Shown here: piece by piece, positions 710-21,741 of the stretch | How the letters are laid out: the number at the start of each line of letters is the position of its first letter | Numbering within the stretch: the first letter of the stretch is position 1 | NCBI GenBank assembly: GCA_964583325.1 | Contig: CAZOXJ010000001.1 | Location: 28,054 to 92,053 of the forward strand | DNA from: an uncultured Lentimicrobiaceae bacterium | GTDB lineage: Bacteria > Bacteroidota > Bacteroidia > Bacteroidales > UBA4417 | Length of the DNA: 64,000 nt | Reading direction: 5' to 3' | Translations under genes and position numbers: made by a program | The notes under the pieces: generated by a model | The model's database searches: none | What the model saw: the letters and a program-made list of their open reading frames with translations, nothing else | What the model was told of the DNA's origin: nothing

Positions 710-1840
710 TCAGAAGGAATTCAGAACCTTTTTTAATACTTCTATCTGGTAATGAGGGTTGTATTTCTCATCAATCACTTTATATGTTGAAATTCTGACA
801 TTTTCTCTTCTTTGGTCATTTAAATGTATCCAGCAAGTTATTTTATCAGCCAAATCCCATGCATTATCCTCTTCAAAAAAATCTCCGTTCACACCCGGCT
901 CAATAACTTCAAATTCGGGCATTTGGGTTTCAAAATTATTATTGGTAATCACAGGAGTTCCGTATGTAAAACAATGCATTGCGGTTAAACCAACATTTCC
1001 CGGAGATATACAAACATCAGCATTATAAATAAGTTCGCTGGTTGTTTCTTCAATGTATGATGGCCCATATAGCCAAACATTCGATTCGAGACCTGAATCT
1101 AAAATCTTCCTGGTAAAACTTAAATTATCAGCATTATCGCCAATAATTGCAAGATTGCAATAGATTCCTTTTTGCTTAAGAATAATCATTGCCATTAAAA
1201 TAAGGTCGATCTTTTTAACTTTTTGTATCCGGCCGATATAAACCAACACTGGAAGCTCATTTTGAAAATGGTTTGAATAAATTGCTGTTTTGTGCAATCC
1301 TTGCCTTATGGGTAGCTGTTTATCATAATCCAATGAGTTATAAATGGGATACATTTTTTGGGGATTGAACCCTTTTTGAATCATAATCTTACACGAATAG
1401 TCGCCATACATAAGAAATATGTGCGACAGATGGTATAATGGATATATCCTCAATTTACTTCTCCAATGCAGTTCTTCCATTGATTTAAGACCATGCATCC
1501 AAATAAAAACTTTTTTATTTAATATCCTCGCAAATAGTGCAATAAACCAACTTGATAAGAAATTAGTATCACCGTCAATGATGAAGAATTTATATCTTTT
1601 AAAAATAAGGTGGGCTACCCCTTTTTGCCATTTATACTTTTTGTTTAAAATAAATATGTTCTTTACCGTTTTTTTATACCCGGAAAGCTCATCAACATTC
1701 ATTAATTTTATTGGAGTCCCAACCTGATCGCCAAAATAAAAATCGCAATTGAGCTCAGAATCCATTAGTTTATAGATAGCCGATCTGTAATGAGGCGCCA
1801 GATTGAAAACACAACATATTTTATTCTTTTCCTTAATCAT
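710..1840 (-). CDS. glycosyltransferase, GT-B fold (GT4-like)
   Basis: 376 aa. The C-terminal half has the GT4 pattern (VYIGRIQKVKKIDLIL, ISPGNVGLTAMHCFTYGTPVITNN, EVIEPGVNGDFFEE). It is the last gene of the glycan locus. Confidence 0.8.
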   Translation of the reverse strand: MIKEKNKICCVFNLAPHYRSAIYKLMDSELNCDFYFGDQVGTPIKLMNVDELSGYKKTVKNIFILNKKYKWQKGVAHLIFKRYKFFIIDGDTNFLSSWFIALFARILNKKVFIWMHGLKSMEELHWRSKLRIYPLYHLSHIFLMYGDYSCKIMIQKGFNPQKMYPIYNSLDYDKQLPIRQGLHKTAIYSNHFQNELPVLVYIGRIQKVKKIDLILMAMIILKQKGIYCNLAIIGDNADNLSFTRKILDSGLESNVWLYGPSYIEETTSELIYNADVCISPGNVGLTAMHCFTYGTPVITNNNFETQMPEFEVIEPGVNGDFFEEDNAWDLADKITCWIHLNDQRRENVRISTYKVIDEKYNPHYQIEVLKKVLNSF

Positions 1841-1854
1841 TTGTCAAATTTCCT

Positions 1855-3210
1855 TTACAACAGAGATTCATCAATTTTCTGAATCAGGAATTTACGTTTC
1901 CCTCTTTGGGTTAACGGGATATCATCAACATACTGAAGTTCAGGCTTTACTCCTATGGATTCAAATAAACTCACTATCTCCTTTTCATGAAAATCGGAAA
2001 ATCCAATATCCTTTACTATTCTTATTTCAATAAAACCGGGAATGTCCTGCTCTATTTGCCAGCGTATTATTCTTTCGAAAGATTTAAGATGGCCACCAAA
2101 TACTAATCCTATGAGATAGACTTTCTTATTGTCCGAATTATAGATAAAATCAACTGTACGGCCCTGAAGCGACTTTAGTTTAACTACCCCGTTAATTGTA
2201 CCGCCATAAATGGCTGTATCACCTGTTCTATAGCGAATAAACGGCATAACTTTATTTGAGTAGCCGGTTACAACAATTTCGCCAGATTCGCCTTCTTTCA
2301 CATGATTGCCATTCTCATCCAGTATTTCGGTAAATCCATAAAGCGGAGAGCAGATATATTCAAGACTATTGGCGAGTGTAAACGCAAAAACAGATACTTC
2401 GGAATGCCCATATTGCCCATAAATGGGACAGTTAAATGCCTTTCTCAATATTTCTGCGTTAGAATTATCAAAGTATTCACTTGTCAAATAAATTCCCTTT
2501 ACTACAAATTGAAGTTTGACATTATTAGCTATAAGATACTTTGCGATTTTTTCAAGTCCTGATGGATATCCTCTTATAAGGGATGGTTTAATTTCATTCA
2601 AGTGTTCTATATAACGACTTAAATTTGTATCAGTCATGTATAAAGTTGAATAGTGAACTGAACCATAAGGAAAATTTTCAGAACCCGTATTCCATAAAGT
2701 ATCTGTATTTCTTAGCCCGTCAGAAACCCGTGATCCATCAACTGCAACTATAACATCTTTGGAATTGCCTCCCATAAGGATATATAAACATTTTTGATGA
2801 ACAAATTCGAAATTAGTTGTTACAGGAAATTTTAGCGGCTCACCCGTTGATCCCCCTGTATTCATCCAGTATCCGAAAACACGGTCAAAATCACCCGAAT
2901 ACATTGCTTGCCCTTGTGTCCGAATAATCTCTTTGGTTAACAACGGTAATTCCTTTAGATTGGAAAACACCATCTTTTTATCCGGATGGATATCCGTCAT
3001 TACTTCCCGGTAATAGGGAACATTTTCTTTTGCATATGAAATAATATTGAACAGTAATTTGGAAACATGATCTTCAAAATTATTAACTTCAATATTGATA
3101 AGCGAATCAGCTAATTTACGTGCCTCTGTTTTGATCCTATAATTAACAAATGCTTTTTCAAGCAGGTTTCTGGTGTTATTAAATGAAAGTTTGATCACTG
3201 TTAAAAGCAA
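1855..3210 (-). CDS. CapK / PaaK / F390-synthetase-like adenylate-forming ligase
   Basis: 451 aa with adenylation motifs NTGGSTGEPLKF and IRYRTGD. The TTG start (3208-3210) directly abuts the stop of the upstream gene (3211-3213); GTG at 3196-3198 is an alternative start. Confidence 0.75.
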   Translation of the reverse strand: MLLTVIKLSFNNTRNLLEKAFVNYRIKTEARKLADSLINIEVNNFEDHVSKLLFNIISYAKENVPYYREVMTDIHPDKKMVFSNLKELPLLTKEIIRTQGQAMYSGDFDRVFGYWMNTGGSTGEPLKFPVTTNFEFVHQKCLYILMGGNSKDVIVAVDGSRVSDGLRNTDTLWNTGSENFPYGSVHYSTLYMTDTNLSRYIEHLNEIKPSLIRGYPSGLEKIAKYLIANNVKLQFVVKGIYLTSEYFDNSNAEILRKAFNCPIYGQYGHSEVSVFAFTLANSLEYICSPLYGFTEILDENGNHVKEGESGEIVVTGYSNKVMPFIRYRTGDTAIYGGTINGVVKLKSLQGRTVDFIYNSDNKKVYLIGLVFGGHLKSFERIIRWQIEQDIPGFIEIRIVKDIGFSDFHEKEIVSLFESIGVKPELQYVDDIPLTQRGKRKFLIQKIDESLL

Positions 3211-4245
3211 TTATACTGTGAAAGCATTAATTTTCTGACTCAAGCGTTTTCCCCTGTTCAGTAAACCATGCTTTTGAGCGTAAAAAAGTGAAGAAGGCGT
3301 ATAGTTTAACCGGTTGTATTCAGCATACTGTTTAACATTTCCGGTTTGAGCCATAAATCTGTTCAATTTAACCAGGCCGGTTTCAGGAAAATGTGTTGGA
3401 TTAATATCGTTGTAAGTCGTAAATGCAAACCGAAAACCGAGTGCACTGGCTATGTTTAGTACATTTTCGTTAAAATTACCATTTGGGAAAGCCGTTGTAT
3501 CAGGTTTAAAGCCTAAGATGTGTTCTAAATTATTGTTACAGTCAATAAACTCTTTTTCAATTTCTTCACTGGTATAATTTGTCAGAATGGCATGATTATG
3601 AGTATGATTTCCTATTGAAACCATGGGATTTGTTGCCATTTCTTTTAGTTCATGCGGGGTTAAGGGACGATCAATTTCAGACCATGGAACAGTTGAATCC
3701 AATCCAAAATGCTTATGAATGTAGGAATCTATATAATCGGATTTGTAACTTTTCAGGGCAGACTGTTCTTTACTGATCATCTCTTTGCTAACCCCTTGTC
3801 TGGTACGGTATTTATATATAATATCCCACCAATAAGATTTATTCTCTGTCACATTTCTGGTGGTAATAAAAAATGAGGCTGGAACCTTGTATTTATCCAG
3901 AATGGGCAGAGCAAGGGAATTATTAAAGTAACCATCATCAAACGTAAGCATTATCAATGGTTTATCGTTACTATCAGTTTGATTTATGTCACTAGTGCCG
4001 ACAAAACGATAATTGCTCTCGAGGAAATACTCTATAAAATCTTGAAACTGGGATAATGTCAGATTATTTTGCGGATCAGAATGATCAAGTTTTTTTTGAG
4101 ATTCCGATTCATACAATCCATGGAAGTAATAGATAAGCAGCTGCTGACTTTCATTCTTATATTTTAAGAATAAAGGGTGAACCATTGGTCCAACTTTTGT
4201 AATCATATTTATAATATTACGATCCAAAAAGCTACTTAAAGACAT
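3211..4245 (-). CDS. polysaccharide deacetylase (NodB homology domain)
   Basis: 344 aa with NodB motifs MLTFDDGYFNN (TFDD) and GNHTHNH (H-x-x-x-H). Confidence 0.8.
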   Translation of the reverse strand: MSLSSFLDRNIINMITKVGPMVHPLFLKYKNESQQLLIYYFHGLYESESQKKLDHSDPQNNLTLSQFQDFIEYFLESNYRFVGTSDINQTDSNDKPLIMLTFDDGYFNNSLALPILDKYKVPASFFITTRNVTENKSYWWDIIYKYRTRQGVSKEMISKEQSALKSYKSDYIDSYIHKHFGLDSTVPWSEIDRPLTPHELKEMATNPMVSIGNHTHNHAILTNYTSEEIEKEFIDCNNNLEHILGFKPDTTAFPNGNFNENVLNIASALGFRFAFTTYNDINPTHFPETGLVKLNRFMAQTGNVKQYAEYNRLNYTPSSLFYAQKHGLLNRGKRLSQKINAFTV

Positions 4246-4379
4246 TATGTTTTTGTTTACGGTTTATATTAACTAATAGGCCTAAGCCGGACTTTTTGTG
4301 ATTAATCTGTTTTGATTAATTCACTTGATGTAATTCCTTTACAAAAAAAAATAACAATATAAAACTATAAATCAATTTG

Positions 4380-5105
4380 TTATCCTTGGTTTGAGCTACT
4401 AAATTTCTCTTTAATAACATAGAAAAGAAATTTAGGATTTCCAACCAGATATCTATGCCACATCCTTCGAGGCTCTTTAATTAATCGAAAAAACCATTCC
4501 AACCCTAAGTCAATAAAACTTTGTGGTGCACGTTTAACACGCATTGAATAAAAATCAAAGACAGCTCCAATGCAGCAAACATGGCCTACCTCAAGCTTCT
4601 CAAAATGCTCGTATGCCCATTTTTCCTGTTTTGGAGCAGTCATACCTATGAATAGGACATCAGGTTTACATTTATTTATTTCATCAATCATTTCTTTATT
4701 TTCTTCTTCCGAAAAAGCAGGTTTGAAATTTGGGGAAAAAGCAAATACATTAACGTTTGGGTATTCATATTTTGCTCTTTCTTTTATAATTTGCAAACTG
4801 GCATCATCACTACCTAAAAAAAAGCATTTCCCTCCCTGGCGGTTTAGTTTATTCATTTCATAAAAGAACAAATCAGCACCCGCTATTTTCTTCAAGGATT
4901 TTCCTTTAATTAATTTTGCAGCAAATACAATCCCGACTCCGTCAGGAAGCAAAATATCAGAGTTTAAAATTGCTTCAGAAAACAAAGAATCACCCTGAGC
5001 AGTATTATACGAATGAGCATTAATTGTATTGATCAACAACTTAACATCAGGAATTTCTTCTAATGATTTGTCAAATAATATCAGGCTGGAAATTGAAAAA
5101 CTCAT
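4380..5105 (-). CDS. WecB/TagA/CpsF family glycosyltransferase (GT26)
   Basis: 241 aa with family motifs LLPDGVGIV, FFLGS and IGMTAPKQEKW. Confidence 0.85.
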   Translation of the reverse strand: MSFSISSLILFDKSLEEIPDVKLLINTINAHSYNTAQGDSLFSEAILNSDILLPDGVGIVFAAKLIKGKSLKKIAGADLFFYEMNKLNRQGGKCFFLGSDDASLQIIKERAKYEYPNVNVFAFSPNFKPAFSEEENKEMIDEINKCKPDVLFIGMTAPKQEKWAYEHFEKLEVGHVCCIGAVFDFYSMRVKRAPQSFIDLGLEWFFRLIKEPRRMWHRYLVGNPKFLFYVIKEKFSSSNQG

Positions 5106-5276
5106 TACGCTAAAAGATATTTATATGGCACTTTAATTCAGGGCATTATTCGTGTAAATCATTAAAAGGTTCTATTTTACAATGAACCTGATTCAATATA
5201 TTTAAACGTTAAAGACTAATTTTATTCTTATTAAAAGAATCAACACCGGGCTTAAGCTGAAAAGATGAATTATGCT

Positions 5277-6458
5277 TCAATCTTTCAGTTCCCAATTTAA
5301 TAACATGTCAGCTTTTAATTTATCAACCGAATAAGCTAAAACATTTTCATTATTAACCGGCTTCAACATTCCTGAAGCACTAATCATGCCTTTTGTAAAT
5401 TGGTCAATGTCGTGCTCATCAATAACACATCCATTTATTCCATCGCGAACTATTTCTTTTGCTGCACTGAAATTTGTAACACAAGCAGGTGTCCCACAGG
5501 CAATGGCTTCAATTAGTGCTGTTGACCATCCCTCTTTATATGACCCCATAATAAACAGGTCGGCAGCATTTAAATAATTTGCAACACCGTATTGATTTTG
5601 TTTGCCTGCAAGGATTACTTTACCTTCTAATCCCAATTTCTTAATATATTCAATTATGTTCTCTTTGTCTTCGCCTTCTCCAATAAAATAAAATACACTA
5701 CCAGGTTTTAGATTTTCATACTTGTAAAAACAATCGATCATAAATTTCCACCCCTTTAACCAGCCTAACCGCCCAGAGGTTACAACAATTGAAGTTGCCG
5801 GAGTGAGGTTCAATGTGCGTCGGGCAACATCTTTATCAATTGGTTTATATACTGCAGTGTTAATTCTTGATGGGAACTGAACAACTTCCTTCCGGTTGAT
5901 AATTCCTTTACTTCTTGTGATCATTCCTTGTATAGCAGTTTCATCGCCGGAAGCTAAAATCTGATCAGCATTTTTTAAATGTCGGAAAAAAACTTTTTCG
6001 AAAGTTTCAGCTATAAATTTCGCATACCAATATTTCGAAATGGAAAGTGGGTTTTCAAGGCCGGCAAAACAGTAACAAACACTGTTATACCCATAATCTT
6101 TTATTCCTATCAGAATTTCTGGTCGTTGTATAAAGATATTACTGACAGGCAATTCCAATATTTGTTTTCGGTAATACTTTGTATAATAATAACTGGCCAG
6201 GCGGTCAGGAATCAGATGTTTCGTAATTGATTTTGAATAAAATGCATATGCAAAAAAATCATAAACTATTCCATTGATTGACTTTTTAAACCAACTTCCT
6301 ATGGGATCTTCCCTATCTGTTGTTATTCCAACTAATGCTAAGCTATCTCCAAAAGAGATCATCATATTCTGTGCAAATGTCAGGTAGCCACCTATAGGGT
6401 AATCCTCGTAGTTGCAATAGTCAATTATTATTATTCGCTTTGATTTATCCATTTGCAA
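5277..6458 (-). CDS. glycosyltransferase family 4
   Basis: 393 aa with FYFIGEGEDKENI and GSYKEGWSTALIEAIACGTPACVTN...IVRDGINGCVI (EX7E-type C-terminal region). Confidence 0.85.
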   Translation of the reverse strand: MQMDKSKRIIIIDYCNYEDYPIGGYLTFAQNMMISFGDSLALVGITTDREDPIGSWFKKSINGIVYDFFAYAFYSKSITKHLIPDRLASYYYTKYYRKQILELPVSNIFIQRPEILIGIKDYGYNSVCYCFAGLENPLSISKYWYAKFIAETFEKVFFRHLKNADQILASGDETAIQGMITRSKGIINRKEVVQFPSRINTAVYKPIDKDVARRTLNLTPATSIVVTSGRLGWLKGWKFMIDCFYKYENLKPGSVFYFIGEGEDKENIIEYIKKLGLEGKVILAGKQNQYGVANYLNAADLFIMGSYKEGWSTALIEAIACGTPACVTNFSAAKEIVRDGINGCVIDEHDIDQFTKGMISASGMLKPVNNENVLAYSVDKLKADMLLNWELKD

Positions 6459-6540
6459 ATTGTAAATATCGTATTACAAGTTCAACTTATGAAAATGCAC
6501 CAATTCTTATTATTAATTCAAAAACATTTTCCGTACTTCA

Positions 6541-7632
6541 TTACTCCGATATAATACTTTGATAAAGAGCAATATATCTTAGTTTCATTTTTTCTATTGA
6601 AAAACTTTCTTCTATACGTTTTTTCCCTTCAGATCCCATTTCTATTCGCATAGATTCGTTGTTAAGCAATAATTGAATTTTATCTGAAAGATCTTTAGGA
6701 TCAGATTCTTTAACCAGGTATCCCGTTTTTCCGGGTTCAACAATTTCATTGGTACCTCCGCCATCAGTAGCAATAACAGGTTTTCCCATTGCCATGTACT
6801 CAAGAATGGAATTAGAAATCCCTTCAGTAAAAGTTGAGAGAACACAAACATCCATAATATTTATAAGCGACTCAACGTCAGACTTTTTACCCAGAAGCCT
6901 TATATAAGGGCTGATATCATAATCAATAAGTCGCCTGGCCGGGAAAGATTCAGTTTTATTTCCGATTGCCAGAAAGGTAACGTCCTTTCTGTGACTTAGA
7001 ACAATTTGTGCTGCTTCAAAATATGTTTTATAATCCTTGTAATCAGAAAAGGAGGCAACCATTCCTACAACGAATTTAGTTTTCACTTTTATTTCATCCA
7101 GTATCAAATTCCTATCGATTATTTTTTCAATTCGATTGAAATTGAATCCATTATGAATAACATGACTTTTAATATCGGAAGCTCCATACGCATTAATTCC
7201 GGCTTTTGAGTTTCCTACAATATAATCAGAAAAAGGAAAAACAAGTTTAGCTCTGATCCAGTGCTTATTAAATATCTTCTGCTTTTGAGGCGAGTCTATT
7301 ACCATTCCGTTAATTAATGGTATTGACAACAATTTACATACCGGCACACTATAAATAGCTGTCATGCTTTCCCAGCAATGCAATATATCAGGCCGAAAAG
7401 ATTTACAAAGTTTATATAACTGGCTGAAAACAGTAACATCTTTCTTCCTTTTCCTTAACAAGTAATGTATTGGGATGCCAAGTTTATGAACCTCTTCATA
7501 ATGTATGTTGTGGCTCATAACAACAAGATTAAATTCAATCTCATGATGGTTATTTAGTGCCTTCATAAGTTCGACCAATCTTCGTTCTTTTCCACCGGAA
7601 CCGAGACTATCAATAAAAAACAGGATCTTCAT
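6541..7632 (-). CDS. glycosyltransferase family 4
   Basis: 363 aa with MKILFFIDSLGSGGKER at the N-terminus and STFTEGISNSILEYMAMGKPVIATDGGGTNEIVEPGKTGYLV. Confidence 0.88.
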   Translation of the reverse strand: MKILFFIDSLGSGGKERRLVELMKALNNHHEIEFNLVVMSHNIHYEEVHKLGIPIHYLLRKRKKDVTVFSQLYKLCKSFRPDILHCWESMTAIYSVPVCKLLSIPLINGMVIDSPQKQKIFNKHWIRAKLVFPFSDYIVGNSKAGINAYGASDIKSHVIHNGFNFNRIEKIIDRNLILDEIKVKTKFVVGMVASFSDYKDYKTYFEAAQIVLSHRKDVTFLAIGNKTESFPARRLIDYDISPYIRLLGKKSDVESLINIMDVCVLSTFTEGISNSILEYMAMGKPVIATDGGGTNEIVEPGKTGYLVKESDPKDLSDKIQLLLNNESMRIEMGSEGKKRIEESFSIEKMKLRYIALYQSIISE

Positions 7633-7774
7633 TATTTACCTGGTTAAGTTTAAAATCCTGAAACTTTTACAAAAGGAAATATTTGCTGTAGCCAAAACTT
7701 CATCCTATTATACTCTGACATGTTCCTGATAGATTTATACCATTAATTAATAGCGTTACGCGAATTAACATGTT

Positions 7775-7808
7775 GTTATGTTGTAAAAACTAGTTTTTAC
7801 AACATAAC
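7775..7808. repeat. perfect 34-bp palindrome GTTATGTTGTAAAAACT|AGTTTTTACAACATAAC
   Basis: All 17 pairs (7775/7808 ... 7791/7792) checked base by base. It is flanked by a second inverted pair, TTACGCG (7756-7762) / CGCGTAA (7818-7824). It lies in the only large gap (263 bp) in the middle of the glycan locus. No U-run follows on either strand. Confidence 0.9.
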
Positions 7809-7895
7809 CGACCTATGCGCGTAATTTCTCTGATTTAATAATTTTGATTGTTAAAAGTAATTTCAAAAATTAGTTTCACAGATAACAAAACACGC

Positions 7896-8930
7896 TCAAC
7901 TCATGGAATTAATAAAATCCTCAATAATAAAACGTTGAGGATCAACATTATCAGCGTGAAAATATAGGCTTTTATCCCAGTATCCCGGGCAATTATCGTA
8001 AACTGCTCCCATTGAGAATCCATAACTCATTTCGACCAGTAGCGGACTACCTGATTTATCATAAACAAAATCCAGTGCAAGTGATTGTGACTTGATTTTG
8101 TCAGCAACATCAAATGCTATTTGAATACTTTTTAAATTAAACAGGTTTGGGTCATATTTAATTATTCCGCTACCAGAAGCCCTAAAATCATTTACCCGGT
8201 TATATCTTCTCAGGGCTATTGCTCTGTTACCTATTATAACAATTCTATCATCAAAACTATTTTCAGGAATAAAATCCTGAAAATAAGCATATCCTTTCTG
8301 CCGTGGAAGTAAACCTATTTTTTCTTTAGCAACAAACAATCTATATAATCCTCTGATTAGATGCAATATAGCTTTTGGGCTTTGATCGCGGCGCAATTCC
8401 CAAACACGTTGTTTAAAATCGGAATACTGGCTAATCATCGGGAATCCGGTTCCAAATGCCCGATTCAATAATTTAATTGCCCTATACCTGTTTTTAACAA
8501 GTTGTACATTGGATGCACCAGCGCCACCCCGTAATTTAAAAACTTTAGGGAAAGTTGTTTGATCGATCCAAACTCTGGCGTCTTCCTTACTATAAAACAC
8601 ATAAGAGTTAACAAGTGGAGCCTGAATGGTTTCGAACAAATATTTTTGACCTACCTTGTCATCAAAGTGGAAACAGGTATTAAAATCAGGAAAAATTCTG
8701 ATTCCTTTTTTTTCTAACGAAAAAATGAGTTGCCGTGCAAAATTCTGGGCTCGGTAATCTTCGTGAGTCCAATGCCACATAAGGCCATCACAACCTATTA
8801 ATTGCTGAATGATATTTGACTCATAACAATTTACCAATTTGTATGAAACATTATGTTTATCGCAATATGCTATCCATCTGTCACTAAAACTACCAGGCCT
8901 GTTATGAATGGCTATCATCATATTAATCAC
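7896..8930 (-). CDS. ATP-grasp ligase, RimK-like
   Basis: 344 aa with the ordered ATP-grasp blocks FPKVFKLRGGAGASNVQLV, YFQDFIPENSFDDRIVIIGNRAI, RRYNRVNDFRASGSGII and LALDFVYDKSGSPLLVEMSYG. The start lies 2 nt after the upstream CapA-like stop. Confidence 0.65.
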   Translation of the reverse strand: MINMMIAIHNRPGSFSDRWIAYCDKHNVSYKLVNCYESNIIQQLIGCDGLMWHWTHEDYRAQNFARQLIFSLEKKGIRIFPDFNTCFHFDDKVGQKYLFETIQAPLVNSYVFYSKEDARVWIDQTTFPKVFKLRGGAGASNVQLVKNRYRAIKLLNRAFGTGFPMISQYSDFKQRVWELRRDQSPKAILHLIRGLYRLFVAKEKIGLLPRQKGYAYFQDFIPENSFDDRIVIIGNRAIALRRYNRVNDFRASGSGIIKYDPNLFNLKSIQIAFDVADKIKSQSLALDFVYDKSGSPLLVEMSYGFSMGAVYDNCPGYWDKSLYFHADNVDPQRFIIEDFINSMS

Positions 8931-8932
8931 TT

Positions 8933-10057
8933 TTATTTTTTTGCTATTGCATCAATCGAAACATCCAGATGCGATTCACAACGGATAACATTTAAAATAT
9001 GATTGTAATGTTTATCTCCCCGAAAAATCCTTGAGAGCCCAAGTTTCGATAGTAATCTTTGTAATTTATGACTTCGCAGAAGATTGACAGGACTGAAGAT
9101 GTCCAGATAATATTCGCGTCGTGAAGCAACAAATTCATCCCATTTACTTTTCAATAAATGCTCATCAACAATAACTGCGGAGAATTCTTCAATTGATTTA
9201 AATATTTGTTGCTTTTCTGTGTCACCCGAAAAGGATAACCCGAAATCCTTTTTGCTTTGCTTAATTGGATGAATTGAGAAACTTAATTCTTTGCTATCTG
9301 AAATTGAAAGTTGTAGAATTAAGCCCGTGTACCAGTCTTTATACTCTGAATCAAGTGTAAACAGGAAATTACCCAAACTATAGAAAATCGGAACATTATT
9401 AAATATTTCATATCCCGAAATACAATGGGTATGATGACCAATAACAACATCAGCACCATTTTCTGCAAAAAAGCGGTATTGTTTAACCATCCGGGGACTA
9501 GGATAATTGTAATATTCATGCCCTCCATGAACTATAACAATTACAAAATCAACCTGTGGCCGAATTTCTTTTATTTTGCTGTAAACCGCTATTAAATCAA
9601 GAGGATTTGCTCCAGGAATATCATTGGTTGCAATTGACCATTCGTTTTCACAAAAGTTTATAATGCCAATTTTAATGCCATTTTTCTCAAAAATTGCAGG
9701 TTGAGAGGCTTCTTCCAGATTTATGCCTGCGCCTGTGGTTAAAATGTTATTGTCCTTACATAAACTCAGCGTGCTGTTTAAACCACTGGTTCCATAATCC
9801 ATAATATGGTTATTTGCCAGTGCTACAGCATGTGTATTGATTTTTTTTAATAAGGTAAATATCCCCTCATTTGTCCTCAGATGCGGACCGGTTTTCTCGA
9901 TTTTAAGGCTGGCATCATCATCAATTACAGGGCATTCTAAATTTAAGATATTTAAATCGCCCTCTTCGAAAATTGAAACTATTTCCTCCGAAAAGAAATT
10001 ATTATTTAAGAATGGTTCTGTGACACAAAAATCACCACAAATATTTATTTTAATCAT
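8933..10057 (-). CDS. CapA / PGA_cap family metallophosphoesterase-like protein
   Basis: 374 aa with family motifs NICGDF, LNLECP, ALANNHIMDYG, VIVHGGHEY, IGHHTHC and YSLGNF. Confidence 0.8.
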   Translation of the reverse strand: MIKINICGDFCVTEPFLNNNFFSEEIVSIFEEGDLNILNLECPVIDDDASLKIEKTGPHLRTNEGIFTLLKKINTHAVALANNHIMDYGTSGLNSTLSLCKDNNILTTGAGINLEEASQPAIFEKNGIKIGIINFCENEWSIATNDIPGANPLDLIAVYSKIKEIRPQVDFVIVIVHGGHEYYNYPSPRMVKQYRFFAENGADVVIGHHTHCISGYEIFNNVPIFYSLGNFLFTLDSEYKDWYTGLILQLSISDSKELSFSIHPIKQSKKDFGLSFSGDTEKQQIFKSIEEFSAVIVDEHLLKSKWDEFVASRREYYLDIFSPVNLLRSHKLQRLLSKLGLSRIFRGDKHYNHILNVIRCESHLDVSIDAIAKK

Positions 10058-10059
10058 AT

Positions 10060-11241
10060 TTACTTGTTTGAAACCAGAAAATCGTATAAACGTTTTGACT
10101 GAATATCTTTATTGAAAATTTGAAATGCTATTTTTTGCCCTTCTTTGCCTACTTTTTCAATGTCGGCTGCTGACAAAGCTTTAGTAATTGCCTGTGAAAA
10201 AGATATAAAACTACCCGGTTCAGCAAAAAAGGCACTTTTATCATTTACCAGGTAATCACTGATCTCGCCAATATCAGTTACACAAACTGGTCTGCCCGAT
10301 GCAAGATATTCTCCCAGTTTAGTTGGAAATCCACCTTCTGATTGTTGCGAATTGGGTCTTGCAAGAGCCAATATTGATGCATTAGATAAAAAAGCAGGAA
10401 TTTCTTCCCTTGATAATTGTCCAAGGTATGTAATCCTGCTTTGAGCGTTATTCTTTTCAATCAGTTTAACCTGAGCTGAATAATCTTCCCTGGGATCTTT
10501 TGCTCCGGCCAGATATAAATGCAAATCAGGAAATTGATCCATAATTTCGATAAATGCCTGAATTAAAATATCGACTCCATCTTTAGAGTTGTTCATACTC
10601 CCGCAATAACCTATATATGGGCTCGAAAGGCTGGCTTCTGCTTGTTTTTCTGAAAATCTTGATAAATCCACCGTCATAGGCAAATGTATCAGAGCAGTTT
10701 GTTTGCTCAAAAACTGATTATAATACTCATTAAGTTTTTTTGTCATTACAGCCATCACATTAATGCGAGGCAATATGTTTTTCAAATAATCATCATGAAG
10801 TTTCTTATTGTTTGGAAAAGCAATCCAGCTAAATTCACTTCTTTCATGAAACAAATTTATCTGAGGCTTAAATAATATCAGGTGCGATGCAATCTCGAAA
10901 ATTTCTTCCGAAACACCTAACCACAAATAGTCATAATTATCATTGACGTATTGATTATGAATTTTATTTGCTAAAACCTTAGAATTAAAATACACTTTGC
11001 CAAGTTTCTTTATAATTGGATTCAGAGTCACTACAGACGAAAGGTATTCGTATTCAAATCCCTTGTAATTCCCACTTTTTGAAAACTTTTGCTTCTCTGA
11101 CTTCAAACCACAAAACTCAACAAAAAGTAATTTCATGTTTACTTTGTTAGCTACCAAGCCTTCAGCAAGAGAAAGAAACCTATTGTTTTGGGCCGAGGTT
11201 TCAACAAAAGGATTTCGTTGTAGCAATACTTGTATTTTCAT
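10060..11241 (-). CDS. glycosyltransferase family 4
   Basis: 393 aa with YIGYCGSMNNSKDGVDILI and SEGGFPTKLGEYLASGRPVCVTDIGEI. Confidence 0.82.
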   Translation of the reverse strand: MKIQVLLQRNPFVETSAQNNRFLSLAEGLVANKVNMKLLFVEFCGLKSEKQKFSKSGNYKGFEYEYLSSVVTLNPIIKKLGKVYFNSKVLANKIHNQYVNDNYDYLWLGVSEEIFEIASHLILFKPQINLFHERSEFSWIAFPNNKKLHDDYLKNILPRINVMAVMTKKLNEYYNQFLSKQTALIHLPMTVDLSRFSEKQAEASLSSPYIGYCGSMNNSKDGVDILIQAFIEIMDQFPDLHLYLAGAKDPREDYSAQVKLIEKNNAQSRITYLGQLSREEIPAFLSNASILALARPNSQQSEGGFPTKLGEYLASGRPVCVTDIGEISDYLVNDKSAFFAEPGSFISFSQAITKALSAADIEKVGKEGQKIAFQIFNKDIQSKRLYDFLVSNK

Positions 11242-11302
11242 TCAGTTTGTTTATCGCTGTGATCAGGAACAGATGTTTCCCGGTTTTATTTAGCTAAACG
11301 AC

Positions 11303-12625
11303 TTATTGTAAGTTTTTTTTACCAATGCTATTAAGCAGAACGGATTTAAAGTTTGCCCTGATTATATTGCTATCGAACTTTTGAATAGCAAGTTCCCTGG
11401 CACTGTTGCCTAACGACATTCTGAGATCTTTATCAGCATAAATGTTTTTTATAGCCGCTTTAAGAACTTCTTTTTTGTTCTGAGAAACAACAACTGCCCA
11501 ATGGTATTGCAATGCATGCCTGGTAACTGCAGTTTCAATACTCGAATAAACAAGTATGGGTGTACCCGAAGCCATATACTCACTTGCTTTTGTTGGCATT
11601 GAATATTTTAAAAAGGAAACAGATTTTTGATCAAAATCATTTGGCAATAAAAGCAAATCGGCTTCACCAAAGATTAAAGGTAATTCATTGTATGGCACTG
11701 GTTTTCGGATTGAAACAAACTCAAATCGCCCAAGTTGTTTTAAAACAGGATTATCATTTGTTGCCTGAATATGAAAAACAATATTTAATCCTTCAGTGTT
11801 CAATTCTCCGACTGCGGCAGCAACCTCCAAAAGTGAATTCTGAAGTCCTGTGCCAATCCGGCCTGCATAAAGCAGTTTAAAAGCACCTTCAGGTTCATAC
11901 GTCTTATCAGGTAATAACCAATGTTTTACATCAATGGGATTATGGAAAGGAATAAATTCCATCCCATACCTGTAATAGTATTCTTTGCTCATGTATTCGC
12001 TAATGCTCATCAATGCATTAGCTTGTGAAAGCAAATGTCTCAGTTCTTTATCAATCTTGGTTTCCCAATGCTTGCGAAACAAGTTGTTTTGTGAAAGAGT
12101 TATTGTAACCGGCCAATCGTCCATAATATGAAAAACCATTGGCTTATTAATTTGACGTGACAAATCACCTAGAAACCTTATTAGTTCATAGGATGCAAGT
12201 TGAGAATAAATAAGATCAGGTGAAAACTCATCAATCCAGGTTAAAAATTGTTGACTGCAAACAAATTTCCGTCTTCGATGCATTTGTCCTGTAAATAATA
12301 GTACCCGGTCTTTACGACTAATTGATGTATTATTTAAACCAGTATTTGATTGTTGATTCTGCCCGGATTTTTGACGAACAACTCCTGATTTTGAAACATC
12401 ATTTCTCATTAAAAGATTAAAAGGAAATCCTCTATCAATTTCACTTTCTCCCAGGTTATAATAATTTTCGCAAACAGAATAGTCGGGGTTTATCAACTCA
12501 CTGGCCGCCACTGCTATTCTGTCTTTATCCCAACCCATAAAAAGATTGGTCATTGTAATTCCACTTCCTGACTTTTTGTGAAAAAACTGACCTAATATTA
12601 AAACTTTTGGATAAGTTGATGACAT
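11303..12625 (-). CDS. GT-B-like glycosyltransferase, tandem paralog A
   Basis: 440 aa. It shares blocks with 12700..14040: GxGIT..NLF.GW.KD.IA, H(I/V)MDDWP, FHNPID, Y(A/S)GRIG, EADLLL.P.DFD.KS..F...S.PTK. Its PTKASEYMASGTPILVY resembles the FPTKLGEYLASGRPV helix of the GT4 at 10060..11241. Confidence 0.55.
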   Translation of the reverse strand: MSSTYPKVLILGQFFHKKSGSGITMTNLFMGWDKDRIAVAASELINPDYSVCENYYNLGESEIDRGFPFNLLMRNDVSKSGVVRQKSGQNQQSNTGLNNTSISRKDRVLLFTGQMHRRRKFVCSQQFLTWIDEFSPDLIYSQLASYELIRFLGDLSRQINKPMVFHIMDDWPVTITLSQNNLFRKHWETKIDKELRHLLSQANALMSISEYMSKEYYYRYGMEFIPFHNPIDVKHWLLPDKTYEPEGAFKLLYAGRIGTGLQNSLLEVAAAVGELNTEGLNIVFHIQATNDNPVLKQLGRFEFVSIRKPVPYNELPLIFGEADLLLLPNDFDQKSVSFLKYSMPTKASEYMASGTPILVYSSIETAVTRHALQYHWAVVVSQNKKEVLKAAIKNIYADKDLRMSLGNSARELAIQKFDSNIIRANFKSVLLNSIGKKNLQ

Positions 12626-12699
12626 AAAAAATGATTGCCTTTATTGCTTTTAGATTATCTGACTTTTCGAATACAAATGATGATTATGCAGCGAAAAGT

Positions 12700-14040
12700 C
12701 TATTTACAATTTGCAATCTCCTCATGAAATGAAGAGCTAACCTTAACCTTGTCAAAATTATTTCTGGCAAATTCCGCAGCCCTGACAGAAAATACTTCTC
12801 TTGAACTTTTATCAGTAAGGGCATTCATAATTGAACTCTTTAACAATTCTATCCTTTGATCGTTGCAGATAAATCCAAGTTTGTTTTCCATCATAAAACG
12901 AATGGAATAAACCATTGACGGACCATAACAAAATACAGGAATCCCTGATATTAAATAAGAGGGTAGTTTTGTTGGGAATGATAACCGTATAAACTCAATG
13001 CTTTTTTTATCGAAATCAACAGGATAAAGGAGTAAATCTGCTTCTAAGAGTTTTGTAATGAAATTATCATCCTTTAAAGCAGGTAAAAGTTTAGTTCCGT
13101 TATGCTCAAATTTAGTAAAATCATTTTCTTTTTCGTTAAGGTCTGTATAGATATTAAAACTGATATCAAGCCCTTCTGATCTTAGTTCTTCAATACATTT
13201 ACTAAATTCGATTATTGAATCATGGCTTGCAGTCCATCCAATCCTTCCCGAATAAACCACAAGATAAGAACCATTCTGTTTTTTTTCATTATGGTTCAAT
13301 TCATTCATTTTGGTTAAATCAATCGGGTTATGAAAATATTTAAACGGGAGTTTGTATCTGTTTTGAAACTCATCGGCCATAGCCTTAGATATACCTAACC
13401 GTAGTGAAGAACCATTGAGCAATTTTTGAAATTTCAGATTTACTATTTTCCTTAACAAAAGTTTCAGGGTTCGGTCTTTATATATCAGATAGGGCCAATC
13501 GTCCATTACATGCACAACTACTTTTGCACCTGTTATACTCTGTGCTTTCAGAACCAGGTTGATGAAAGAAATATTTTCGGGTTGACAATATATAATATCC
13601 GGCTTAAAAGCCAATATCCAGTCATGAAGAGATTTTGACATTCGCAGAGGATGTACAAATTCCTGGAGTCCGGTTTTCAGAAGAAAACGCTGGAATCTTT
13701 GTTTTATGACATTTTGAGTAGGAATATGTTCATGCAATACAGTTTCAGAATTATTCTCAGTTCCATAAACCTTATCGAAATCAGCTGACGAATATGGCCC
13801 GTTAAATTTTCCGCGAGGCTCATTACTCAATTTATTGATTGGAAAAATATAATGAGATTCATCATAACCAATTTTATAGTATTTATCACAAACACTTGTC
13901 ATTGGTTTAGAGTCACTAAGATGGGCAAAAGCAATTTTATCTTTGGGCCAACCAAGAAACAGGTTTTTTAAGGTTATACCGCCACCTCTGAACTCGTTAA
14001 AACTATAATTATTTATTATTAACAGCCGTGGATAATTCAT
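12700..14040 (-). CDS. GT-B-like glycosyltransferase, tandem paralog B
   Basis: 446 aa with the same conserved blocks as 11303..12625 (HVMDDWP, FHNPID, YSGRIG, EADLLLYPVDFDKKSIEFIRLSFPTKLPSYLISGIPVFCY). Confidence 0.55.
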   Translation of the reverse strand: MNYPRLLIINNYSFNEFRGGGITLKNLFLGWPKDKIAFAHLSDSKPMTSVCDKYYKIGYDESHYIFPINKLSNEPRGKFNGPYSSADFDKVYGTENNSETVLHEHIPTQNVIKQRFQRFLLKTGLQEFVHPLRMSKSLHDWILAFKPDIIYCQPENISFINLVLKAQSITGAKVVVHVMDDWPYLIYKDRTLKLLLRKIVNLKFQKLLNGSSLRLGISKAMADEFQNRYKLPFKYFHNPIDLTKMNELNHNEKKQNGSYLVVYSGRIGWTASHDSIIEFSKCIEELRSEGLDISFNIYTDLNEKENDFTKFEHNGTKLLPALKDDNFITKLLEADLLLYPVDFDKKSIEFIRLSFPTKLPSYLISGIPVFCYGPSMVYSIRFMMENKLGFICNDQRIELLKSSIMNALTDKSSREVFSVRAAEFARNNFDKVKVSSSFHEEIANCK

Positions 14041-14120
14041 TTCGTTTATTGTATGTATTTTTTCTCAGTAAAGAATTAAAGAAATAATAGATTCGTCAAT
14101 TCGCCGGTTTGTGTTTATAA

Positions 14121-15401
14121 CTATTCCTGATTCAATTGTTGCTTACTGTCCTCAAAAATCTTTTGATAAATAAATGACATTCTTTCTCTCACAAGCTGCT
14201 TATCGTGGCGTAAAACAGCCCTTTTATATGCATTCCTTGATATAAGTAGTGTAAGATCTTTATCCATTATCAAATCGGTTATCGCTCCAGTGAGCGAATA
14301 AGGATCACCGTCCTGTACCAACAATCCTTCTTTCCCATTTTCGAGTATTGACGGTGTACCTCCGGCATATGTTGCAACAACCGGCATACCCATTATCATT
14401 GCTTCACAAATACTGTTAGGGCTATTCTCAATATGTGATGGGTGAACATACATATTAGCCTCTCTCAACTCAATTATCAATTTTTCTGCACTTAGTGATC
14501 CTTTGAAACAAATATTATGATCTGCAAATTTTAAATTGGTTGATTTTTCAATCATTCTAATTATCTCTTCATTGCCATTTATACCAGCAACTATCCATTC
14601 AATCTCAGATGAACAGATATTTTTCAGCAAATTTGAAGCTTCCAGAATCGTTTCAAGTCCTTTGTAAGCCATAGTGCTTATGGTTGACACCAGCCTGATT
14701 TTATTTTTTTCAGGTTTCTGCCAGGGTTGTACATGATAGAATTCGTCTCTTAGCAATTCTTCGCAATGAAAATAAGTGCTTGACGGAGAAAAAACCTTAC
14801 TGATTCGACGGTCCCAATCGGTTCGACCAATATAGTTCCGGCAATAATTCATTAATTTACGCTCTCTTGCTGCCCTGTTCGAAAAATGAAAATACAGATG
14901 CCATAATCCATATGCTTTTATTAAGTTTTTAACATTTGAATAACGTAAAACATTTATTGAACTCAATCCCGAAAACCATTTTTTTGCTGTTATTGTAAGA
15001 TTGCCTTGAATATGGATAACTACAGGAACTTTTACTTGAGGAATTATTAGCCCAAAAGGAGATTCGGTGCCGAAAACATGTATAACGTCGGGTTTAAACT
15101 TGTCGACAATCTTAAGGTAGTATGCAATAATATTTTCAGATTCGATTTTATGGTTCCACCTATCCCAAATACCCGCTAAGTTACTCTTGGTTTTAGGAAA
15201 CGGATATGAAAAATATTGAGTATGGTTTAACTCGAAATTTGATTCTTTCTCATATCCAAATGGAAATGCAACACCAAGTTGTATTTCATTATTTTTTTCA
15301 ATTTCTTTTTGAAGCGATACAATCCAACCTGTAATATTTCTTTCAATATTTAAATGCGCCGAAGCAAGAGATGGTGAATCAGTAAACCAAAGTACTTTCA
15401 T
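14121..15401 (-). CDS. glycosyltransferase family 4
   Basis: 426 aa with HIENSPNSICEAMIMGMPVVATYAGGTPSILENGKEGLLVQDGDP. Confidence 0.85.
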   Translation of the reverse strand: MKVLWFTDSPSLASAHLNIERNITGWIVSLQKEIEKNNEIQLGVAFPFGYEKESNFELNHTQYFSYPFPKTKSNLAGIWDRWNHKIESENIIAYYLKIVDKFKPDVIHVFGTESPFGLIIPQVKVPVVIHIQGNLTITAKKWFSGLSSINVLRYSNVKNLIKAYGLWHLYFHFSNRAARERKLMNYCRNYIGRTDWDRRISKVFSPSSTYFHCEELLRDEFYHVQPWQKPEKNKIRLVSTISTMAYKGLETILEASNLLKNICSSEIEWIVAGINGNEEIIRMIEKSTNLKFADHNICFKGSLSAEKLIIELREANMYVHPSHIENSPNSICEAMIMGMPVVATYAGGTPSILENGKEGLLVQDGDPYSLTGAITDLIMDKDLTLLISRNAYKRAVLRHDKQLVRERMSFIYQKIFEDSKQQLNQE

Positions 15402-15410
15402 AGATATTTG

Positions 15411-16820
15411 TTAACCTTCCGGAGCTAAGTTTTCCTGACTTTCTTTTTTCTTTTTGCCGTATGCCATTATCAGTGCCGATAAAATGCCAAAATACCAAAG
15501 GGCAAGTGCAAATCGACTAGGCGACATGATAGTAAATGAGGTAAATCCCTCAATTACCTGTGAAATGATTGTCAAAAGCAACATTAAAGCTAATTGTGAC
15601 ACTATTCCTTCTGTTCGGATAAAAAGAAAGAATGCTTTTATTAAAGAACTAACATAAAGTAATATAAATAGAGCTAATCCTAAAAAGCCCCAACGGAAAA
15701 CGACTTCAGCCCATCCCATATCGGCAGTAGCACCATCAACAACTTTCACAAAAGGGGTTTGTTTTTCAGTTACAGATCCATAACCAAAAAGTTTTTTATC
15801 AGTTGACATTCTTGCTATTACACGATCAATTTTGTAAAACCTATAAACAAGATTGTTATTTTGTGCTGTAGCAGGTTGATCGTCAAGTTCTTCAAATCTA
15901 CTGAGGAAATAATTAGTACTGGCAGGAAGAAAGTTGGAAACAACAGCAAAAATACCAATAGCTGCTATGCATGCCAAAAAGAGATTTTTTAAAGTTTTCC
16001 CAAGGCTTTTTTCTTTAAATCCGATTAAAAAATAATAAGCTATAAATAACAAAATTGCGATCATCAGGAATGAACGCGTATATGAGATATAAATACCGAT
16101 AATATTAATCGAAATTAAAAGATAGTCCAATATCGTTTTATTTCGAGTCATAGCTAAAAGGTAGGAAATTGAAAAAAACCAAAGAACTGGCATAAACCAA
16201 AATGTTCTTGTAATTACCTGACCTTCAAATACAGTTACAAGATATTCATTGTTTGTACTTGCATATAAGTTTATATGTAATCCCTGGTGGATAAAATAGA
16301 AACACGAAGCTAAAGAATTGACAAGAACTATGTTATATAAAAATTTTTTCAAAACATTAATTTCAACCCTGCCAGTTACATCTTTGATTATAAAGAATCC
16401 TATAAATAGTGCAAGGAGTACAATAATTTTGTCATACACATCATTTAGGACATAGTATTCATGAATTACTATTCCAAACCCGATTAAAGATATGATAATT
16501 AAACCAGCCACAATATAATCAATAATGCTAAATTTATTGTAATGCTTGATATTATTTAAAGTTGGGAAGTCCTCCGAGCGGATTCGGAAAATTATCCAAA
16601 ATATTATCATCCATACCAATAAGGTAATGTCAGGATTTCTATCTATTGATTGAAAAGATCTAAAGGGTATCCTGAAAAGTTCAACTGATTCGAAGAATAT
16701 TGATGAACGCAGGAACATCAGGAATGGAATTCCGAGAATAAATATCGGATCCTTTAATGCACGGTATACAAAATACAATACAAGGATATAAGGCAAGAAT
16801 TTGAGAAAGAGGTATATCAT
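15411..16820 (-). CDS. Wzy_C-family polytopic membrane protein (O-antigen ligase or polymerase type)
   Basis: 469 aa with roughly 10-12 hydrophobic segments and one ~70-aa hydrophilic loop (about aa 300-370, ...SRFEELDDQPATAQNNNLVYRFYKIDRV...). This topology fits Wzy/WaaL, not a Wzx flippase. The YISYTRSFLM segment precedes the loop. Confidence 0.65.
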   Translation of the reverse strand: MIYLFLKFLPYILVLYFVYRALKDPIFILGIPFLMFLRSSIFFESVELFRIPFRSFQSIDRNPDITLLVWMIIFWIIFRIRSEDFPTLNNIKHYNKFSIIDYIVAGLIIISLIGFGIVIHEYYVLNDVYDKIIVLLALFIGFFIIKDVTGRVEINVLKKFLYNIVLVNSLASCFYFIHQGLHINLYASTNNEYLVTVFEGQVITRTFWFMPVLWFFSISYLLAMTRNKTILDYLLISINIIGIYISYTRSFLMIAILLFIAYYFLIGFKEKSLGKTLKNLFLACIAAIGIFAVVSNFLPASTNYFLSRFEELDDQPATAQNNNLVYRFYKIDRVIARMSTDKKLFGYGSVTEKQTPFVKVVDGATADMGWAEVVFRWGFLGLALFILLYVSSLIKAFFLFIRTEGIVSQLALMLLLTIISQVIEGFTSFTIMSPSRFALALWYFGILSALIMAYGKKKKESQENLAPEG

Positions 16821-16838
16821 ATCAAAATAGTCAAAATA

Positions 16839-18032: not shown

Positions 18033-18089
18033 AGGTCAGAGTTTATATTGAAAGAATTAACCGGCAGTTAAACTATTTGACAAATTATA

Positions 18090-19397: not shown

Positions 19398-19478
19398 ACT
19401 TGTCCTTATATTGAATTCCAGTTTGTTGTATTCTCATTTCTGGAGATATAAACACCAAACTGTTAAAATTATTTTACA

Positions 19479-20339: not shown

Positions 20340-20355
20340 TTCGAGAATTCGATTA

Positions 20356-20373
20356 ATAAAGTACGTACTTTAT
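20356..20373. repeat. perfect 18-bp palindrome ATAAAGTAC|GTACTTTAT
   Basis: All 9 pairs checked. It lies 17-34 nt upstream of the wzm start codon (20337-20339). Confidence 0.85.
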
Positions 20374-20483
20374 ATGATGTTTGTATTGGAAAAAATTCAA
20401 TGCTAAAATGGTTTTCATTCACCAGATCAACTGCTTTGCAGCATTATGAATTTTAAAATTGTTACTCCTGTTTTTTTTTGAAT

Positions 20484-21648: not shown

Positions 21649-21741
21649 ATAATTTTCAAGGACTTGATTACTAAAGTAATGTTTGAGGTTTTCAGAATAT
21701 ATTCAAGACATTTACCAATGAAATATCAAAATAGTAACGAT

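Follow-up and report, generated by a model that had tools for sequence, protein, structure and literature searches.

Carboxylate amidation is a known type of glycan modification in bacteria; new within it would be a family of ATP-grasp proteins (referred to here as G) and its cassette with a CapA-like protein, which we describe starting from a 64-kb stretch of DNA (the window) of an uncultured Lentimicrobiaceae bacterium (contig CAZOXJ010000001.1, positions 28,054 to 92,053). Several described systems are close to one or other member of this pair. RimK, LysX and ArgX are ATP-grasp ligases that append a free amino acid to a carboxylate of a macromolecule after activating it. Uronic acids are amidated by AsnB-like amidotransferases, such as WbpS of Pseudomonas aeruginosa O6, WbtH of Francisella and MoeH5 of the moenomycin pathway, and the CapA (PgsA) component of poly-gamma-glutamate (PGA) synthetase carries an N-terminal membrane anchor. 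In Campylobacter jejuni HS:2, Cj1438C, an ATP-grasp enzyme of the TupA-like type, amidates the C6 carboxylate of glucuronic acid in the growing capsule, and the next glycosyltransferase (GT) requires the amidated acceptor (PMC11800379). TupA-like enzymes encoded in polysaccharide loci have been predicted to act as amino-acid decorators (PMC12632600). Bacterial glycans are documented to contain uronic acids amidated with L-Ala, L-Lys, L-Ser, L-Thr or Gly, and also uronic acids to which D-allothreonine (the C-alpha epimer of L-Thr) is amide-linked (PMC10609480). Finally, MslH, which depends on Ca(II), epimerises the Trp at the C-terminus of a lasso-peptide precursor; it has a single metal site (E44, N87, H259, H261), at which the terminal carboxylate of the substrate is located, and two His/Asp dyads (H88/D91 and H295/D11) (PMC10406935). 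This enzyme requires a peptide-bound residue (PMC10406935, PMC8179263), and its discoverers proposed that CapA is an epimerase bringing D-Glu into PGA (PMC8179263).

The analysis combined profile and fold searches in the window with comparisons of related loci. Both open reading frames (ORFs) of the pair lie on the minus strand, the CapA-like gene upstream (8933..10057) and the gene for G downstream (7896..8930), and they are flanked by two genes for GTs of the GT4 type, which we call gtA (10060..11241, minus strand; Pfam Glyco_trans_1_4, E 7e-21, and Glycos_transf_1, E 4e-18) and gtB (6541..7632, minus strand; Glycos_transf_1, E 2e-30, and Glyco_transf_4, E 1e-10). The product of gtB is also TIGR03088-like at E 4e-48, below the cut-off of that model, and shows weak similarity to TviE, TuaC and PglH.

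An earlier examination of the letters of the window (the sequence-only reading) had proposed that the CapA-like protein and G form a module. To judge their linkage, we sampled 80 loci from genomes with G as the anchor and 80 from metagenomes with the CapA-like protein as the anchor, and the ORFs called in these 160 loci were clustered by all-against-all BLASTP. In 26 of 79 G blocks, the gene directly upstream of G and co-oriented with it was CapA-like, against 12 of 1018 (1.2%) among the remaining ORFs in these loci (binomial p = 2e-30), which rules out chance adjacency. When the distance was extended to at most three genes upstream, the CapA-like gene was present in 30 of the 70 loci with room to judge (~43%). 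The pair was detected in Bacteroidota, Cloacimonadota, Acidobacteriota/Aminicenantes, Ignavibacteria, Planctomycetota and Deltaproteobacteria, so that the co-occurrence, well above chance, extends over glycan loci of many phyla. Culturable strains with both genes include Fulvivirga imtechensis AK7, Saccharicrinis sp. FJH54 and Pirellulaceae SH449, while Chitinophaga spp., Idiomarina xiamenensis 10-D-4 and Vreelandella aquamarina have G only. The most constant neighbour of G was nevertheless not the CapA-like gene but gtB, an orthologue of which was located at most three genes downstream in 54 of 65 loci. Orthologues of gtA co-varied with the CapA-like gene: they occurred in 16 of 24 loci that contain it and in 2 of 30 loci that do not. 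The conserved unit is thus larger than the pair and asymmetric, with G and gtB as its core and the CapA-like gene, often together with gtA, as an accessory in ~40% of loci. The proposed module therefore stands as regards the strong linkage of the two genes, but the CapA-like protein is an optional part of it. On the G tree the CapA-like gene is distributed patchily (42 runs versus 57.7 +/- 5.2 expected at random), which indicates repeated gain and loss. No fusions of CapA-like and ATP-grasp proteins were found among the 160 loci, in which the two clusters stayed separate.

The loci anchored on the CapA-like protein give the complementary picture. Where at least 3.5 kb of downstream sequence was available, a gene for an amide-forming ligase was present at most three genes away in 33 of 37 loci. 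G was present in 20 of them, a TupA-like protein (PF14305) in 10 and an AsnB-like enzyme in 7, and no locus contained G together with a TupA-like protein. The TupA-like proteins (cluster 10) match PF14305 at E 2.4e-48; they hold the exact slot of G between the CapA-like gene and gtB, and gtB follows G and TupA-like genes alike (at most five genes downstream in 30 of the 37 loci). The AsnB-like enzymes, which amidate a uronic carboxylate and are likewise encoded near GT4s, occupy the slot beside the CapA-like gene and G in several loci; they differ from G in fold, act by adenylation and not through the acyl phosphate expected for G, and usually yield a plain carboxamide. Among the remaining CapA-anchored loci, three encode an Asn-synthase-domain protein without a glutaminase domain, and two have G upstream instead. 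The CapA-like gene is therefore nearly always accompanied by a ligase gene, whereas the ligase is independent of the CapA-like gene, and two unrelated ATP-grasp families share one slot. The position of G beside GTs and its interchangeability with TupA-like enzymes support the view that it works like them, not that it is a member of their family: PF14305 gave no match to G at E <= 0.01.

Both tailoring systems assembled around an ATP-grasp enzyme can be compared point by point. As in the case of Cj1438C, G is encoded in a glycan locus beside GTs, and amidation of the uronic C6 position, demonstrated for the Campylobacter enzyme, may be supposed for G as well. The two systems would also have in common an assembly in the cytoplasm of the ATP-binding cassette (ABC) transporter type and a second enzyme, Cj1435 in C. 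jejuni, that tailors the appended group (in our locus this role would fall to the CapA-like protein). They differ in that G is a stand-alone protein, while Cj1438C is fused to a GT2; moreover, the partner of G is a CapA-like protein of calcineurin fold in place of a HAD phosphatase, and genes for the supply of phosphorylated amines are lacking here.

Several lines of evidence characterise G itself. The sequence-only reading had described it as RimK-like, with the ordered ATP-grasp blocks of RimK-type ligases. The TIGR00768 (RimK family) model matched G at E 1.3e-10, but with 41.2 bits against a cut-off of 143.4, and the match to the LysX model was also sub-threshold. PF08443 gave no match at E <= 0.01 for the G protein of the window, while approximately half of the listed homologues carry a precomputed PF08443 match. 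A sequence search of the PDB returned nothing useful (best E 0.32, PurD). The AlphaFold2 (AF2) model, with a predicted local distance difference test (pLDDT) score of 90.2, was more informative: Foldseek placed ArgX, LysX and RimK at the top, together with synapsin and Ddl (probability 1.00; E 3e-15 to 1e-11 for ArgX, LysX, RimK and Ddl). A profile built from 52 homologues aligns to Escherichia coli RimK over the strand with the phosphate-binding Lys, the hinge Gln, the DFR..G loop and the Mg-binding Asp/Glu. The corresponding residues K132, Q218, D287 and E300 are invariant in the 52 homologues, so the nucleotide-binding residues are intact. At the Asn position of the canonical ExN motif the window protein has Ser302, and 51 of 52 homologues have Ser there; such substitutions have been recorded in other ATP-grasp clades (PMC4431377). 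Fold and residues (Lys, hinge Gln, Mg-binding Asp/Glu, and ExS replacing ExN) thus assign G to the ATP-grasp superfamily. RimK, LysX and ArgX remain its closest solved folds and share with it the ordered ATP-grasp blocks, including the DFR..G loop, but the identity is only 13-16%, and G has ExS, an extra helical insert (~168-199) and a glycan context instead of ribosomal protein S6 or LysW. The RimK-type assignment consequently holds for the ordered blocks and the fold and fails for membership of the RimK family. Sequence and model together mark G as a carboxylate-amine ligase with its ATP-grasp features intact, belonging to a separate, so far uncharacterised family outside the RimK family. 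The R2K_2 family was also considered and rejected, the Pfam match (E 0.004) being below the cut-off and the conflict-system and phage context of R2K proteins (PMC4431377) unfitting.

The G family is large. More than 6,700 90%-identity clusters scored among the 8,000 candidates examined, and relatives were found in at least 540 GTDB species representatives of many phyla and in thousands of metagenomic proteins, while a tblastn search with G against 72,556 plasmids gave no match. For the genes of the cassette, annotation goes no further than "ATP-grasp domain protein" and "CapA family protein". A literature search on glycan modules of CapA and ATP-grasp proteins, PGA_cap proteins in polysaccharide loci, and ATP-grasp enzymes with amide-linked uronic acids found nothing directly relevant, Iyer et al. 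2009 and the discovery paper of Cj1438C lying outside its coverage.

Three further features of the sampled loci were recorded. Tandem copies of G occur in 12 of 80 loci (L008, L009, L011, L017, L025, L036, L039, L042, L044, L070 and others), with paralogues ~47-54% identical to the window protein, which suggests two successive or alternative ligations. A family of ~375-aa CE4-deacetylase-like proteins (motifs DD[WY]G and HGxEH; no Pfam match) has 44 members in the 160 loci; in 8 of 46 cases its gene, occasionally present twice, lies directly upstream of the CapA-like gene, and AsnB-like, ATP-grasp and GT4 genes follow (examples are L059:17685-18809, L136, L138 and L159). In approximately six loci devoid of the CapA-like gene, a DUF362 protein (PF04015, E 3.5e-26) is encoded directly upstream of G and may be an alternative accessory enzyme (DUF362 loci: L003, L018, L031, L046, L050, L057, L063, L066, L071).

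The CapA-like protein (374 aa) is a clear member of the PGA_cap family: PF09587 matched it with 191.3 bits (cut-off 27; E 2.7e-56) over profile positions 29-253 of 255. The full CapA/PGA_cap motif set that the sequence-only reading had listed is present, namely ANNH (81-84), HGGHEY (177-182), GHHTHC (207-212) and SLGNF (227-231). Its AF2 model (pLDDT 91.5) shows a calcineurin fold like that of MslH and a helical domain at the C-terminus (~279-373). The N-terminal sequence, MIKINICGDF, leads straight into the first beta-strand (residues 2-11) of the catalytic fold, and neither the sequence nor the AF2 model contains a hydrophobic N-terminal segment or membrane anchor; on this basis the CapA-like protein is cytoplasmic and soluble. 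It resembles CapA/PgsA of the PGA synthetase (CapBCA/PgsBCA) in belonging to the PGA_cap family and in having an ATP-dependent amide ligase as partner. The two differ in other respects: the partner is an ATP-grasp protein, the surroundings are a GT-rich polysaccharide locus, the anchor is missing, and the window is devoid of CapB, CapC and CapD. The absence of CapB (Mur-ligase-type) and CapC, already pointed out in the sequence-only reading, extends to every sizeable ORF of the 64-kb window. Neither of the two features by which a CapA/PgsA protein could be recognised, co-encoded CapB/CapC and an N-terminal anchor, was thus found, and a classical PGA operon can be ruled out.

The best match of the CapA-like protein in the PDB is MslH (8GQ9), the only characterised PGA_cap relative, both by sequence (phmmer, E 1e-15) and by fold (Foldseek, E 5e-22, template modelling (TM) score 0.70). 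The next fold matches, 5'-nucleotidases and Mre11-type phosphoesterases, reached a TM score of ~0.45. All eight functional residues of MslH have a counterpart (D11/E44/N87/H88/D91/H259/H261/H295 correspond to D9/E41/N83/H84/D87/H177/H180/H211), so that the metal ligands (E41, N83, H177, H180) and both dyads (H84/D87 and H211/D9) are present. Seven of the eight are invariant in 52 family members, and H180 is kept in 45 of 52. The motif-I His (DxH) of two-metal phosphoesterases is missing, as in the mononuclear MslH: position D9+2 is occupied by C, Y, F or V and never by H in the 52 members. Both proteins are soluble. They differ in overall identity (~18%), in the C-terminal domain, and in the presumed substrate, which would be a glycan-bound residue and not a peptide; no lasso-peptide gene is located near the CapA-like gene. 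The relationship with MslH therefore offers a concrete hypothesis for the role of the CapA-like protein, for which the sequence-only reading had none.

We propose that the two genes belong to a widespread cassette, with the gene order gtA - CapA-like - G - gtB, that tailors glycans in the cytoplasm. In the ligase step, G would convert a sugar carboxylate into an acyl phosphate at the expense of ATP, probably at C6 of a uronic acid (e.g. N-acetylmannosaminuronic or N-acetylgalactosaminuronic acid, ManNAcA or GalNAcA) present on a growing lipid-linked glycan or a nucleotide sugar, and would link the activated carboxylate to an amino acid via the alpha-amino group of the latter (or to another amine), giving an N-(uronoyl)-amino acid. 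The amidated sugar would be handled by gtB, which would either transfer it or extend the chain from it. The CapA-like protein would act on the ligase product as an optional tailoring enzyme: the free alpha-carboxylate would be bound at the single metal site, and the two His/Asp dyads would invert C-alpha, producing a D-amino-acid decoration.

This scheme is built on the observed folds, conserved catalytic residues, gene linkage and interchangeability of ligase families, while the substrates, the order of the steps and the epimerase activity are drawn from analogy. A sugar carboxylate is the expected target of G because G replaces TupA-like and AsnB-like enzymes position for position, and an amino acid is the expected nucleophile because the RimK, LysX and ArgX folds add free amino acids to macromolecular carboxylates. 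Epimerisation of the appended residue is suggested because an N-acyl residue with a free alpha-carboxylate is the motif shared by the C-terminal Trp of MslA and the Glu of gamma-PGA; the optional, repeatedly gained and lost CapA-like gene fits tailoring after ligation. The presence of Wzm/Wzt would imply that the chain is assembled in the cytoplasm, by analogy with the Campylobacter capsule. Support for an acidic sugar is indirect: WecG/TagA-family GTs are enriched in loci with the CapA-like gene (5 versus 0 loci) and one is encoded in the window, and in other G loci a TviB-like UDP-N-acetylhexosamine (HexNAc) dehydrogenase (16 of 47) and a TviC-like epimerase (24 of 47) were found. Of the products suggested in the sequence-only reading (an amino acid or a short poly-amino-acid decoration), the first is the one that, on analogy, is best backed by precedent, and a poly-amino-acid product is not favoured. 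We consider it probable that G amidates a sugar carboxylate. The complete mechanism, with the CapA-like protein as an epimerase, is advanced tentatively, as plausible but somewhat short of probable.

Several observations weigh against this interpretation. The functions ascribed to the G family and to the CapA-like proteins of glycan loci rest on sequence, fold and analogy, and G scores below the family thresholds of both the TupA-like (PF14305) and the RimK models. The sizeable ORFs of the window include no UDP-sugar 6-dehydrogenase, which leaves an acidic sugar in this glycan hypothetical. The MslH residue set is mostly common to PGA_cap proteins and metallophosphoesterases, which makes it a permissive marker that does not separate an epimerase from a hydrolase, and the NCBIfam equivalog model of MslH (NF038314) gave 65.3 bits against a cut-off of 700. 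A few CapA-like genes adjoin only a gene for an AsnB-like enzyme or a GT, where a plain carboxamide, if that is the product, would have no C-alpha to invert. Finally, the CapA-like gene co-varies with an additional GT4 gene (gtA), which the epimerase idea alone does not explain.

The generic character of the MslH-type residues within PGA_cap proteins would also suit a hydrolase, and the main alternative, which we regard as unlikely, is that G ligates a phosphorylated amine (such as ethanolamine phosphate, serinol phosphate or O-phosphoserine) to a sugar carboxylate and that the CapA-like protein is a phosphoesterase taking off the phosphate afterwards, the functional analogue of the HAD phosphatase Cj1435 of C. 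jejuni HS:2. In that organism the order of action is indeed amidoligase, phosphatase and then a GT requiring the amidated acceptor (PMC11800379), and an optional CapA-like protein would fit a step needed for some amines only. The phosphoesterases that follow MslH in the fold search point in the same direction, but with TM scores of ~0.45 against 0.70, and the hallmarks of two-metal phosphoesterases, the motif-I His (DxH) and GDxxDR, are both missing, the arrangement being that of the mononuclear MslH. Genes that could supply phosphorylated amines (pyridoxal phosphate (PLP) enzymes: aminotransferases or decarboxylases) were not enriched alongside the CapA-like gene in the compared loci, and none is present in the glycan locus of the window.

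The lack of a uronic-acid dehydrogenase in the window is, in turn, what would be expected if G activated a free amino acid and N-acylated a sugar amine (producing N-alanyl or N-seryl sugars), with the CapA-like protein performing some other tailoring. D-alanyl, L-alanyl and D-aspartyl amino sugars are known in O-antigens (PMC10609480), a PF01522 deacetylase is encoded in the window (3211-4245), and the CE4-like genes described above directly precede the CapA-like gene in 8 of 46 loci. Genes of the deacetylase type are, however, not conserved with G (7-8 of ~46 full loci); the nearest folds of G attach a free amino acid to carboxylates of macromolecules, and the enzymes that replace it in its slot (TupA-like and AsnB-like) act on sugar carboxylates. 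This alternative has, in our opinion, a small chance of being correct.

Even less probable is the synthesis of an oligo- or poly-amino acid, similar to PGA or teichuronopeptide, with G replacing CapB as a polymerising ligase and the CapA-like protein in the role it has in PGA formation. RimK, which G resembles in fold, polymerises Glu, CapA is a component of the PGA machinery, and the tandem G genes of 12/80 loci could mean more than one ligation; on the other hand, G lies outside the RimK family by score, occurs without the CapA-like protein in over half of the loci and is tied to a GT4 and not to an exporter of peptide polymers, and CapB, CapC and the membrane anchor are all missing. The least likely order of events is that the CapA-like protein acts first, as a racemase supplying a free D-amino acid for attachment by G, which predicts the same gene linkage and the same D-amino-acid end product and is possible in principle with MslH-type acid/base chemistry, but is at variance with the need of MslH for a peptide-bound residue and would demand repeated switches of ligase stereospecificity as the CapA-like gene was gained and lost among close relatives of G.

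If the proposed amidation and epimerisation are extended beyond this cassette, the cytoplasmic PGA_cap proteins of polysaccharide loci might be general epimerases of glycan-bound N-acyl amino acids, acting after an L-amino acid has been joined to a uronic acid by G, TupA-like or AsnB-like enzymes; G, which occurs in at least 540 species, would be a third, uncharacterised family of glycan amidoligases. This generalisation is speculative, and we hold it to be somewhat doubtful. Were it true, it would reveal an unrecognised general route to D-amino-acid decorations of glycans, e.g. D-allothreonine, and would unite MslH, the CapA of gamma-PGA and the CapA-like proteins as epimerases of "free-alpha-carboxylate N-acyl amino acids". 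The epimerase idea would also explain D-amino acids in polysaccharides and support the proposal that CapA is a PGA epimerase.

Amino-acid amides of uronic acids alter the charge and antigenicity of glycans, their recognition by phages and lyases, and biofilm behaviour; for example, glycine on the Vibrio polysaccharide (VPS) is essential for recognition by RbmB (PMC12993940). The enzymes that install such groups are known for very few systems, while the cassette is common (at least 540 species representatives) and accessible to experiment. Among the O- and K-antigens with uronamides of D- or L-amino acids are those of Hafnia alvei 1206, Proteus O27/O28, E. coli O91 and Haemophilus influenzae d. 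Assigning the function of the cassette would improve the prediction of glycan structure from sequence and would provide the non-PGA part of the PGA_cap family, which is large, with a testable function.

In the window, the cassette belongs to a glycan biosynthesis and export locus of ~26 kb (710..27170), defined by domain matches, in which all genes are co-directional on the minus strand; the glycan context perceived in the sequence-only reading was thus borne out. The locus encodes Wza (26358-27170, within a Wza/Wzc region at 23975-27170), the ABC exporter proteins Wzm (19479-20339) and Wzt (18090-19397, with a weak Wzt_C carbohydrate-binding domain), FnlA/B/C-like enzymes (6-deoxy-L-HexNAc), the WecG/TagA-family GT (4380-5105), the PF01522 polysaccharide deacetylase and a PaaK/F390-synthetase-like adenylating enzyme (AMP-ligase; 1855-3210), as well as at least eight GT4-type proteins. 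It also contains a multi-pass membrane ORF similar to Wzy/O-antigen ligases (15411-16820), which has no Pfam match. An NAD-synthetase-like fragment begins below position 710. The window as a whole encodes T9SS (type IX secretion system) sorting domains and has a GC content of ~35%, both of which point to Bacteroidota.

Some other features of this region deserve mention. The deacetylase gene (3211-4245) directly adjoins the PaaK-like gene (1855-3210), and their products could form a de-N-acetylation and re-acylation pair that places an unusual N-acyl group on the glycan. The part of the locus at 15411-27170 mixes an ABC exporter, Wza/Wzc and a Wzy/ligase-like ORF, i.e. the signatures of two export routes. 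A 397-aa ORF (16839-18032, minus strand) has no Pfam match even at E 0.1, and two paralogous ORFs of ~440 aa (11303-12625 and 12700-14040, minus strand) show weak similarity to GT4s. Just outside the glycan locus (28106-28771 and 34095-36119) are genes for a PLP-binding protein of the YggS type, with an Ala_racemase_N fold, and for a D-2-hydroxyacid dehydrogenase and a class-V aminotransferase that form a SerA/SerC-like pair; no evidence ties either the pair or the YggS-type protein to the glycan.

The junctions within the cassette are short. The gtA gene ends 2 nt ahead of the start codon of the CapA-like gene, as read from the sequence. At the following junction, TAA(8935-8933)-AA-GTG(8930), a start of G at GTG 8930 would lie 2 nt after the CapA-like gene, as the sequence-only reading had it. 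Alignments of the family begin, however, at M4/M5 of the window protein, and in identical metagenome contigs the gene callers place the start of G 11 or 14 nt past the CapA-like stop codon (341 or 340 aa); for these reasons the real start is probably ATG 8921 or 8918, and the 2-nt spacing applies only to GTG 8930. The commonest junction in the related loci is a 4-nt stop/start overlap (27 of 46), and close coupling is therefore a trait of the family. G and gtB, by contrast, are set apart by a 263-nt spacer, which holds a perfect 16-bp inverted repeat (7775..7808, not assigned to a strand) composed of GTTATGTTGTAAAAAC and its complement, separated by a 2-nt loop. The repeat is unique within the window, and the predicted RNA hairpin (-17.3 kcal/mol, z = -3.9), located inside the operon, could act as a terminator or attenuator or mark a processing site.

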